DNA from: Escherichia coli | GTDB lineage: Bacteria > Pseudomonadota > Gammaproteobacteria > Enterobacterales > Enterobacteriaceae | Strand: one strand, 5' to 3' | Assembly (NCBI RefSeq): GCF_051903065.1 | Contig: NZ_CP178438.1 | Length of the DNA stretch: 64,000 nt | Shown: positions 20,501 to 58,223 of the stretch, piece after piece | Numbering within the stretch: the first letter of the stretch is position 1 | Layout of the letters: each line of letters opens with the position of its first letter | Notes under the pieces: model-generated | The model's database searches: none | Told to the model about the DNA's origin: nothing | Seen by the model: the letters and a program-made list of their open reading frames with translations, nothing else | Translations under genes and position numbers: made by a program

Positions 20501-21196
20501 ATGAGAACAGGATGTGAACCGACCCGGTTTGGTAATGAAGCTAAGACCATTATTCACGGTGATGCCCTTGCCGAACTTAAAAAGCTACCTACTGAAAGCG
20601 TCGATCTGATCTTTGCCGACCCACCGTATAACATCGGTAAAAATTTTGATGGTCTGATCGAAGCCTGGAAAGAAGATCTGTTTATCGACTGGCTGTTAGA
20701 AGTGATTGCAGAGTGCCACCGCGTTCTGAAAAAGCAGGGCAGCATGTACATCATGAACAGTACGGAAAACATGCCCTTTATCGATCTCCAGTGCCGCAAG
20801 CTTTTTACCATCAAAAGTCGCATCGTCTGGTCATATGACAGTTCTGGAGTGCAGGCGAAAAAACACTACGGCTCCATGTACGAACCCATCCTGATGATGG
20901 TGAAAGACGCAAAGAACTACACATTCAACGGTGATGCTATTCTGGTAGAAGCCAAAACCGGATCGCAGCGCGCGTTGATCGATTATCGCAAAAATCCTCC
21001 ACAGCCTTACAATCATCAAAAAGTACCGGGTAACGTCTGGGATTTTCCGCGCGTGCGTTATTTGATGGATGAATATGAGAACCACCCGACGCAAAAACCG
21101 GAAGCCTTACTGAAACGCATTATTCTCGCCTCTTCCAACCCAGGCGATATCGTTCTCGACCCGTTTGCCGGTGATGCTGCCAACTTACTGATTTAG
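20501..21196 (+). pseudogene. yhdJ: DNA adenine methyltransferase YhdJ, 3'-truncated by IS1; reading frame runs 8 codons into the IS1 inverted repeat to a TAG
   Basis: MRTGCEPTRFGNEAKTIIHGDAL...DPPY motif...DPFAG then GDAANLLI* encoded by the IS1 end (GGTGATGCTGCCAACTTACTGATTTAG); native YhdJ is ~294 aa by recall. Confidence 0.8.
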
Positions 21197-21224
21197 TGTA
21201 TGATGGTGTTTTTGAGGTGCTCCA

Positions 21225-21500
21225 GTGGCTTCTGTTTCTATCAGCTGTCCCTCCTGTTCAGCTACTGACGGGGTGGTGCGTAACGGCAAAAGCACCGCCG
21301 GACATCAGCGCTATCTCTGCTCTCACTGCCGTAAAACATGGCAACTGCAGTTCACTTACACCGCTTCTCAACCCGGTACGCACCAGAAAATCATTGATAT
21401 GGCCATGAATGGCGTTGGATGCCGGGCAACAGCCCGCATTATGGGCGTTGGCCTCAACACGATTTTACGTCACTTAAAAAACTCAGGCCGCAGTCGGTAA
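21225..21500 (+). CDS. insA: IS1 InsA (transposition inhibitor / N-terminal part of transposase)
   Basis: 91-aa [40 protein letters not shown] with GTG start. Confidence 0.9.
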
Positions 21501-21922
21501 CCTCGCGCATACAGCCGGGCAGTGACGTCATCGTCTGCGCGGAAATGGACGAACAGTGGGGCTATGTCGGGGCTAAATCGCGCCAGCGCTGGCTGTTTTA
21601 CGCGTATGACAGGCTCCGGAAGACGGTTGTTGCGCACGTATTCGGTGAACGCACTATGGCGACGCTGGGGCGTCTTATGAGCCTGCTGTCACCCTTTGAC
21701 GTGGTGATATGGATGACGGATGGCTGGCCGCTGTATGAATCCCGCCTGAAGGGAAAGCTGCACGTAATCAGCAAGCGATATACGCAGCGAATTGAGCGGC
21801 ATAACCTGAATCTGAGGCAGCACCTGGCACGGCTGGGACGGAAGTCGCTGTCGTTCTCAAAATCGGTGGAGCTGCATGACAAAGTCATCGGGCATTATCT
21901 GAACATAAAACACTATCAATAA
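21419..21922 (+). CDS. insB: IS1 InsB reading frame (expressed as InsAB' transposase by -1 frameshift at the A6C motif near 21476)
   Basis: 167-aa ORF in the -1 frame relative to insA; TTAAAAAACTC slippery motif at 21474-21484. Confidence 0.8.
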
Positions 21923-22015
21923 GTTGGAGTCATTACCCGGTGATAAAATGGCATTCAGCTCGTTAATAAGAGAGTTAACTTATTAAGCGTTAGCGTTTAT
22001 TACTGAGGTAACACC

Positions 22016-22237
22016 ATGAAAAGATTAATTCCTGTGGCATTGCTCACCGCATTGCTGGCGGGCTGTGCTCACGATTCGCCCTGCGTTCCGGTTTATGACG
22101 ATCAGGGGCGTCTGGTTCACACCAATACCTGTATGAAAGGCACAACTCAGGATAACTGGGAAACGGCTGGGGCTATTGCTGGCGGAGCAGCAGCTGTTGC
22201 TGGCCTGACGATGGGGATCATCGCTCTGTCGAAATAA
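22016..22237 (+). CDS. yhdV: Small lipoprotein YhdV
   Basis: 73-aa ORF MKRLIPVALLTALLAGCAHDS: lipobox LAGC plus Gly/Ala-rich C-terminus. Confidence 0.75.
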   Translation: MKRLIPVALLTALLAGCAHDSPCVPVYDDQGRLVHTNTCMKGTTQDNWETAGAIAGGAAAVAGLTMGIIALSK

Positions 22238-27049: not shown

Positions 27050-27169
27050 ATGTCTGGCAGTTCCCTACTCTCGCATGGGGAGTCCCCACACTACCATCGG
27101 CGCTACGGCGTTTCACTTCTGAGTTCGGCATGGGGTCAGGTGGGACCACCGCGCTACTGCCGCCAGACA
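27050..27169 (-). rRNA. rrfF: 5S rRNA, distal copy
   Basis: 120-nt match to reverse complement of E. coli 5S rRNA, with a few variant positions. Confidence 0.9.
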
Positions 27170-27206
27170 AATTCTTTTCTAATCTGCCGAACTTTAACCT
27201 AAAAAG

Positions 27207-27282
27207 TGGTGCTGATACCCAGAGTCGAACTGGGGACCTCACCCTTACCAAGGGTGCGCTCTACCAACTGAGCCATATCAGC
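27207..27282 (-). tRNA. thrV: tRNA-Thr
   Basis: Reverse complement reads GCTGATATGGCTCAGTTGGTAGAGCGCACCCTTGGTAAGGGTGAGGTCCCCAGTTCGACTCTGGGTATCAGCACCA (76 nt). Confidence 0.9.
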
Positions 27283-27294
27283 ACGCTAAATTTG

Positions 27295-27414
27295 ATGCCT
27301 GGCAGTTCCCTACTCTCGCATGGGGAGACCCCACACTACCATCGGCGCTACGGCGTTTCACTTCTGAGTTCGGCATGGGGTCAGGTGGGACCACCGCGCT
27401 ACGGCCGCCAGGCA
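27295..27414 (-). rRNA. rrfD: 5S rRNA
   Basis: 120-nt match to reverse complement of E. coli 5S rRNA. Confidence 0.9.
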
Positions 27415-27506
27415 AATTCTGTTTTATCAGACCGCTTCTGCGTTCTGATTTAATCTGTATCAGGCCGAAAATCTTCTCTCATCCGCCAAAACAGCTTCGG
27501 CGTTGT

Positions 27507-30409
<2,903 letters not shown>

Positions 30410-30592
30410 TCACAACCCGAAGATGTTTCTTTCGATTCATCATCGTGTTGCGAAAATTTGAGAGACTCACGAACAACTCTCGTTGTTCAGTGTTTCAATT
30501 TTCAGCTTGATCCAGATTTTTAAAGAGCAAAACTTCGCAGTGAACCTTTGCAGGTACACTCTGAAGTATTTTTTATTTAATCACTACAGAGA

Positions 30593-30668
30593 TGGTGGAG
30601 CTATGCGGGATCGAACCGCAGACCTCCTGCGTGCAAAGCAGGCGCTCTCCCAGCTGAGCTATAGCCCC
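30593..30668 (-). tRNA. alaU: tRNA-Ala (16S-23S spacer)
   Basis: Reverse complement reads GGGGCTATAGCTCAGCTGGGAGAGCGCCTGCTTTGCACGCAGGAGGTCTGCGGTTCGATCCCGCATAGCTCCACCA. Confidence 0.9.
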
Positions 30669-30710
30669 ATAACATGTAGTTAAAACCTCTTCAAATTTGC
30701 CGTGCAAATT

Positions 30711-30787
<77 letters not shown>

Positions 30788-30855
30788 GTAGAGGTTTTAC
30801 TGCTCATTTTCATCAGACAATCTGTGTGAGCACTGCAAAGTACGCTTCTTTAAGG

Positions 30856-32397
<1,542 letters not shown>

Positions 32398-57081: not shown

Positions 57082-57109
57082 ATTATACGCAAATCTGAGC
57101 CTGACGCAA
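57082..57109 (-). promoter_or_regulatory. S10 operon promoter (-35 TTGCGT, 16-bp spacer, -10 TATAAT, GCGCGGG discriminator)
   Basis: rc of 57082-57109 reads TTGCGTCAGGCTCAGATTTGCGTATAAT followed by GCGCGGGC. Confidence 0.65.
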
Positions 57110-57282
57110 GCATCGGGCAGAAATTAATCGCAACGCGCAGATTGCGAGCTGCATTCCACGAAATTTGTAAGGTTGTGAAGATAGCGTTTTTCACCGGAAT
57201 CAGGTTAACAAATCAGCGCTCTCTCTGTTGCTGAGCATCCGGAGTTATTCGATGGTGATACTCCAATTACAGAGGATGTTTT

Positions 57283-57750
57283 ATGGACACTACCCTTCCC
57301 TTTCTAATTTTGTACGCTTGTTTATCAGCCCTACTTTTTTTCTGGGATGCAAAGCATGGCTTGTTACCTGACAGATTTACGTGCCCGTTACTCTGGTCAG
57401 GTCTTTTGTTCTATCAAGTTTGTCATCCTGATGGTTTAGCCGATGCGTTATGGGGGGCAATTATTGGTTACGGCACATTCGCTGTCATTTACTGGGGGTA
57501 TCGCATACTGCGCCATAAAGAAGGATTAGGCTATGGTGATGTGAAGTTTCTCGCCGCCCTTGGCGCCTGGCATTCATGGGCCTTCTTACCACGACTGGTT
57601 TTCCTTGCTGCCTCATTCGCTTGCGGAGCCGTAGTTATTGGTCTGCTCATGAGAGGAAAAGAATCATTAAAAAACCCGCTGCCTTTTGGGCCATTTCTGG
57701 CGGCTGCGGGTTTCGTTATAGGCTGGGATAGTTTGCTGATAGGCCGTTAA
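57283..57750 (+). CDS. Type IV prepilin peptidase-like membrane protein (peptidase A24 family), short form (155 aa); probably corresponds to the terminal gspO gene of the T2SS locus found here in K-12
   Basis: 155-aa hydrophobic ORF with LLPDRF and [18 protein letters not shown] motifs (the two catalytic-Asp motifs of prepilin peptidases); RBS GAGGA 8 nt upstream; convergent with bfr. Confidence 0.7.
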
Positions 57751-58223
57751 TCTTTAACTTTAATTTGTGATTGCAGGTAATTTTGTAGGCCGATTTTACC
57801 GATGAGATCCAGTTCAGTTTCGAGCCAGTCGATATGACCTTCTTCATCGGCAAGGATCTCGATCATCATATCGCGGCTAACATAGTCATGAACGCTGTCG
57901 GCATACGCGATAGCCTCACGCAGATCCTTCGCACCTTCCAGCTCTAATCGCAGGTCGGATTGCAGCATCTCTTCGACATCTTCACCGATCCCTAGCTTAC
58001 CTAAATCCTGTAAGTTGGGGATTCCTTCTAAAAACAAAATACGCTCGATATATTTATCAGCGTGTTTCATCTCATCGATGGATTCATGGTATTCGACGTC
58101 ATTAAGACGCATCAGTCCCCAGTTTTTAAACATCCGGGCATGGAGAAAATACTGATTGATTGCGACAAGCTCATTTCCCAATAGTTTATTGAGATAATTT
58201 ATGATTTTAACATCACCTTTCAT
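57747..58223 (-). CDS. bfr: Bacterioferritin
   Basis: 158-aa [59 protein letters not shown]. Confidence 0.9.

Follow-up and report, generated by a model that had tools for sequence, protein, structure and literature searches.

In a stretch of Escherichia coli DNA of 64,000 nucleotides (the window), a full-length IS1 of the IS1A type, most likely mobile to judge from its sequence, very probably marks an adjacent deletion, produced by transposition, of the chromosomal segment that corresponds to K-12 3412322-3418311. Whichever route the rearrangement took, and in whatever order its steps occurred, comparison with close relatives indicates that IS1 has rearranged this site after the strains diverged.

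Structure and allele of the element

The first-pass annotation had assigned the interval 21419-21922 to IS1. Those coordinates fit the insB frame only; the complete element extends from 21170 to 21937, on the + strand, and is 768 bp long. The structural claims made in the same annotation, namely that both inverted repeats are complete, that insA (91 aa) and the insB frame (167 aa) are open, that the A6C slippery motif lies at 21474-21484 and that the copy is intact, were all borne out. The left terminal inverted repeat (IRL, 23 bp, 21170-21192, + strand, GGTGATGCTGCCAACTTACTGAT) and the right one (IRR, 23 bp, 21915-21937, - strand) are the same as those of IS1A and IS1R. They are complementary to each other at 18 of 23 positions and have no mismatch to the IS1 end consensus, of which they are the only matches in the 64-kb window (chance expectation 0); the same scan found no further IS1 copy in the window. 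Both length and ends are those of the IS1 family, whose members measure about 768 bp and carry imperfect inverted repeats of about 23 bp beginning GGT(A/G)ATG. Overlapping IRL, a consensus scan picked out a promoter-like site, CTGCCA-16-TATGAT (21177-21204, + strand), presumably where the IS1 promoter is to be expected.

The insA gene (21225-21500, + strand) starts with GTG and encodes a protein that is the same as K-12 InsA1, which we take to be both the repressor and the N-terminal part of the transposase. The product of the insB frame (21419-21922, + strand) differs from K-12 InsB1 by one residue (R65 instead of S65). The frameshift site, TTAAAAAACTC (21474-21484, + strand), has its A6C run at 21476-21482 in the phase of insA (TTA AAA AAC), and each of the seven IS1 copies that were compared has it at IS position 305. 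The arrangement, with insA and insB' in phases 0 and -1 and A6C near the end of insA, is the two-frame organization of the family. InsA would be made from insA itself, while a rare -1 ribosomal slip at A6C would give the DDE transposase InsAB', acting mainly in cis on both 23-bp ends. The insAB' frame as we reconstructed it through the -1 frameshift (21225-21922, + strand, 232 aa) encodes a Zn ribbon, an HTH and the DDE_Tnp_IS1 domain. The Pfam matches cover essentially whole profiles (PF03811, 1-35 of 35; PF12759, 1-44 of 46; PF03400, 1-131 of 131), with E-values from 8e-21 to 3.5e-78. In strains 23CRST027 and ECNB21-M121, PGAP annotates the insAB' coding sequence as WP_103215986.1 with a programmed frameshift, and the product name given in the relatives is IS1-like element IS1A family transposase.

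A base-by-base comparison with reference copies had been proposed in the first-pass annotation as a check, and its outcome favours an intact element. The exact 768-bp sequence (768/768) occurs at many chromosomal and plasmid sites in E. coli genomes. Its closest references are K-12 IS1A and IS1E (type I, the 'consensus' IS1), which reside at another genomic location and share with it the length of 768 bp, IRL, IRR, insA and A6C. Identity to K-12 IS1A is 767/768, the sole change being a G instead of the K-12 T at IS position 444 (window 21613), and K-12 IS1E and IS1I are likewise one nucleotide away, at the same position. As a result, InsAB' is identical to the K-12 type I protein at 231 of 232 residues, with R130 here and S130 in K-12; R130 is also found in IS1R and in IS1B/C. 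The IS1R of plasmid R100 has the length, ends, gene layout, frameshift site and R130 in common with the window copy and differs from it at six nucleotides (positions 262, 298, 301, 304, 393 and 396); it carries F81 in InsA and InsAB', whereas the window copy has L81. K-12 IS1B and IS1C are eight nucleotides away. The differences from the reference copies spare both inverted repeats and the frameshift site. Every structural test thus agrees that, by its sequence, the element belongs to IS1, closest to K-12 IS1A/IS1E, and it is nothing new in kind.

Junctions, missing chromosome and close relatives

The sequence to the left of IS1 corresponds to yhdJ up to K-12 3412321, and the sequence to the right corresponds to K-12 from 3418312 onwards. 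In K-12, 5,990 bp separate these two flanks, and the interval between them, which holds the last ~213 bp of yhdJ, yhdU, envR/acrS, acrE and acrF (the AcrEF efflux pump), is absent here. Homology to K-12 stops at 21169-21172 and resumes at 21937/21938, with the complete IS1 in between. At the left deletion junction (21167-21172), K-12 3412321 meets the first base of IS1, with three nucleotides (GGT) common to yhdJ and IRL. At the right junction (21937-21946), the last base of IS1 meets K-12 3418312 (CGGTGATAA...), which has no matching repeat of 8-10 bp on the left. The truncated yhdJ (20501-21172, + strand), encoding an adenine DNA methyltransferase, lacks its last ~213 bp. Its frame enters IRL and ends with ...DPFAG-DAANLLI and a stop at 21196, and the Pfam N6_N4_Mtase match breaks off at profile position 192 of 221, so that the end of the domain is lost. 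On the other side, the lipoprotein gene yhdV (22016-22237, + strand) starts 78 bp after IRR.

No repeat of 8-10 bp flanks the window IS1, that is, the target-site duplication expected of a simple insertion was not found. The same script was run on five nearby IS1 insertions as controls (in MB51, HH107, NT1F10, 63-2 and 2017-19-1CC), and in 5 of 5 it recovered contiguous flanks and a duplication of 8 or 9 bp without mismatch. A target-site duplication marks an insertion event and not the element, and its absence here is explained by the adjacent deletion. An 8-bp direct repeat, CCGGTGAT (21168-21175 and 21937-21944), was considered as a duplication and rejected since each of its copies extends into an IS1 terminus; the repeat is due to a chance resemblance of the IS1 end to the native right flank (CGGTGAT...) and to yhdJ (GCCGGT). 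Similarly, the GGTGAT of the right flank is not the remnant of a second IS1 end, being native K-12 sequence upstream of yhdV. Neither the missing duplication nor the ~6-kb deletion at this IS1 had been mentioned in the first-pass annotation.

The window was compared with 5,426 complete E. coli genomes. Only two of them, 23CRST027 and 23CRST031 (human faeces, Ecuador), have both junctions base for base. A third, ECNB21-M121 (meat, China), has an IS1 and a right junction identical to those of the window; its left junction lies at K-12 3412814, about 490 bp from that of the window, so that envR-acrEF alone is gone and both yhdJ and yhdU remain intact. The window and ECNB21-M121 differ by 3 SNPs in ~37 kb outside rrnD, and 23CRST031 sides with the window at two of the three, the two that its locus covers. 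Most of the differences between the window and its near-identical relatives lie elsewhere, in tight clusters in the 23S gene and spacer of rrnD (27466-30438, with clusters at 27608-27618, 28676-28686 and 29182-29239), a pattern such as is typically left by gene conversion among rRNA operons or by differences in assembly. An assembly error could also be invoked for the IS1 locus, as a collapse across repeats that would account for both the missing duplication and the odd flanks, IS1 being present in tens of copies and a classic cause of misassembly. Two complete genomes, assembled independently of each other, nevertheless have both junctions to the base, a third genome has the right one, and gene order in the flanks otherwise follows that of K-12. 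In view of this recurrence of the junctions in separate assemblies, we consider an artefact to be excluded, its residual probability being negligible.

IS1 is carried by 4,970 of the 5,426 complete genomes, at a median of 10-11 places per genome. The chromosomes of 23CRST027 and 23CRST031 have it at 36-37 places and that of ECNB21-M121 at 27-28, which suggests that IS1 has moved recently in the lineage. The first-pass annotation had proposed such a count, and had regarded a lack of other copies, or of polymorphism among related isolates, as speaking against an active element; many copies and a polymorphic left junction are what the relatives show.

Origin of the deletions and probable mobility of the copy

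The deletion in the window ends exactly at an IS terminus, and the IS has been kept intact. In addition, the junction at IRR is fixed, whereas that at IRL varies, lying at K-12 3412814 in ECNB21-M121 and at 3412321 in the window. Two other genomes, BKQWHE and MS115-1, display the same pattern of fixed and variable junctions at another right junction, which they have in common upstream of yhdW, their left junctions and IS1 alleles being different. That close strains differ by ~490 bp abutting IRL exactly is the pattern of an IS-mediated adjacent deletion. Such deletions start precisely at the terminus of the element and end at variable points, IS1/Tn9 being among the listed examples (PMC9330008). 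As far as the account in PMC9330008 goes, the IS1-promoted adjacent deletions of Turlan and Chandler (1995, cited there) resemble the present ones in starting at a terminus, in leaving an intact IS without a duplication, and in having one junction fixed and the other variable; unlike them, as they are described there, ours is a natural chromosomal case, recognized by genome comparison. The suggestion in the first-pass annotation that this IS1 is a source of rearrangement is thus borne out here by the missing duplication, the ~6 kb deleted and a near-identical relative with another left junction.

The most likely succession of events is the following. IS1 would have inserted in the yhdU-yhdV interval, and an IS1-associated adjacent deletion would then have removed envR-acrEF, giving the state kept by ECNB21-M121. 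In the lineage leading to the window strain and to 23CRST027/031, a second deletion, of ~490 bp and starting exactly from IRL, would have taken away yhdU together with the end of yhdJ. For each deletion, we favour an intramolecular replicative transposition of the window copy, via IRL, into nearby DNA, which would leave an intact IS at the new junction and discard the DNA between. Alternatively, the window and ECNB21-M121 could each have reached their state by a deletion of their own, starting from an unseen simple-insertion ancestor. Such an ancestor would read ...ACCTCCGGTGATAA abutting GGTGATGCTGCC, with CGGTGATAA duplicated and acrF intact. No simple insertion at this right junction with acrEF intact is present among the 5,426 genomes; three have the junction, and each of the three carries a deletion.

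Another possible origin of the deletions is homologous recombination, dependent on RecA, between the window copy and a second IS1 in direct repeat, which would have newly inserted to the left, first near envR and later in yhdJ, so that the transposase of the window copy itself would not be responsible. The end product would be the same, a single intact IS1 without duplication and with non-contiguous flanks, and sequence does not separate the two routes. Deletions commonly arise by recombination between IS copies (PMC9330008), the 27-37 IS1 copies per genome could supply the insertions, and the lineages of 63-2 and 2017-19-1CC do have simple IS1 insertions in the same orientation, in yhdJ and in the yhdJ-yhdU interval. 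Mosaic IS1 alleles at the locus point in the same direction, 26 of the 28 differences in the MS115-1 copy lying beyond position 444; the IS1 copies of the window and ECNB21-M121, being identical, give no information on recombination. Against this, no two-copy intermediate with the window junctions was found among the 5,426 genomes, and two events per deletion are needed instead of one. Moreover, IS1 transposition in the lineage would still be required, so that an active IS1 is not contradicted. We regard recombination as possible, though rather unlikely, and retain adjacent deletion by transposition as the preferred explanation.

How far the copy itself can be held to be mobile depends on what is known of IS1 alleles. 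More than 99.9% of the IS1 transposition in K-12 BW25113 is due to the type I allele (IS1A/IS1E). The remaining full-length alleles hardly move, and the change L81F in the HTH has been put forward as a candidate cause of this near-inactivity (PMC12428005). Movement of IS1 within the chromosome is replicative, and it is raised by transcription entering from upstream (PMC12428005). The window IS1 has the same orientation as fis and the truncated yhdJ, and a scan of the + strand found no terminator-like site between fis/yhdJ and IS1, so that its context looks permissive.

That four of the six full-length K-12 copies with open frames barely transpose (PMC12428005) means that open frames are no proof of mobility, and the window copy might be intact yet effectively immobile, like K-12 IS1B/C/D/F, owing to S130R or to its surroundings; in that case, the deletions would date from long ago or have been made by other copies. 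R130 is indeed common to the poorly active K-12 types. It occurs in the IS1R of R100 as well, however, which we take to be the classic element seen experimentally to transpose. Besides, L81 and all other type I positions are kept, many unrelated sites on chromosomes and plasmids carry the exact 768-bp allele, and the left junction varies between strains that are only ~1 SNP per 10 kb apart. An immobile copy is accordingly quite improbable in our estimation. The preferred reading, which these observations support, is that of an ordinary full-length IS1, apparently functional and most likely still mobile. In 23CRST031 the same copy has GGG instead of GGGG at IS1 positions 495-498 (window 21664-21667) and is annotated as a frameshifted pseudogene. 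This 1-nt deletion is either real decay of the copy or a homopolymer sequencing error; we count it against our explanation, as indicating that the copy can decay.

The acrEF neighbourhood and the consequences of its loss

In other lineages, the equivalents of K-12 3412300-3419000 have been the site of many independent IS1 events, all oriented as in the window. Five simple insertions with duplications of 8-9 bp were found, three in the acrF-yhdV spacer (252 bp), one in yhdJ and one between yhdJ and yhdU; altogether, the neighbourhood has undergone at least five independent simple insertions and shows four different IS1-bounded deletions, in one orientation. IS1 also adjoins yhdU/acrS or acrF in other lineages. 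By the measure used here, in which the acrB paralogue (60-80% identity) is the best match to K-12 acrF, acrF is absent from ~1.6% of complete E. coli genomes (86 of 5,427 records). One might imagine that the neighbourhood is a recurrent IS1 target in IS1-rich lineages, with insertions near acrS/acrE or in the acrF-yhdV spacer coming first and IRL-anchored deletions of the normally silent AcrEF following. We consider this improbable; if true, it would imply a local hotspot or selection for the loss of acrEF. The activation of acrEF by IS1, IS2 or IS10 (Jellen-Ritter and Kern 2001; Olliver et al. 2005; PMC9330008) concerns the same neighbourhood and the same kind of element. In the present case, in contrast to the activation reported in PMC9330008, so far as it is set out there, acrEF and its repressor are deleted.

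As the first-pass annotation had stated, the element lies near an rRNA operon and essential operons. rrnD (27052-32397) is located 5.1 kb to its right, and accBC and mreBCD lie to its left. Farther away, the tldD-yhdP spacer (1009-1241) contains two units of the naRNA4/REP type (1068-1137 and 1159-1228) and is ~92 bp longer than in K-12, which corresponds to one extra repeat unit. Near the other end, at 57088-58223, collinearity with K-12 breaks off shortly beyond rpsJ (K-12 3453454). There, gspB and the K-12 genes that follow it were not found; directly in their place are a gene annotated as a prepilin peptidase in close relatives and then bfr, tufA, fusA and rpsG. ECNB21-M121 matches this region at 100%, and 23CRST027 and 23CRST031 nearly so.

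The IS1 biology seen here is textbook and already known; it leaves the knowledge of IS1 unchanged, and its practical value is small. The junctions are rare (2 of 5,426 complete genomes) and could therefore serve as lineage markers. For the organism, the rearrangement means that the window strain and its two closest sequenced relatives are without AcrEF, its repressor EnvR/AcrS, YhdU and a functional YhdJ methyltransferase. With acrEF deleted, these strains cannot become resistant through the activation of acrEF by an IS, which is a known route. The IS1 at the boundary is a likely site of further loss. To its left, ~5 kb of dispensable genes (the truncated yhdJ, fis, dusB, prmA and panF) precede the essential accBC, and to its right lie yhdV-yhdZ and rrnD.
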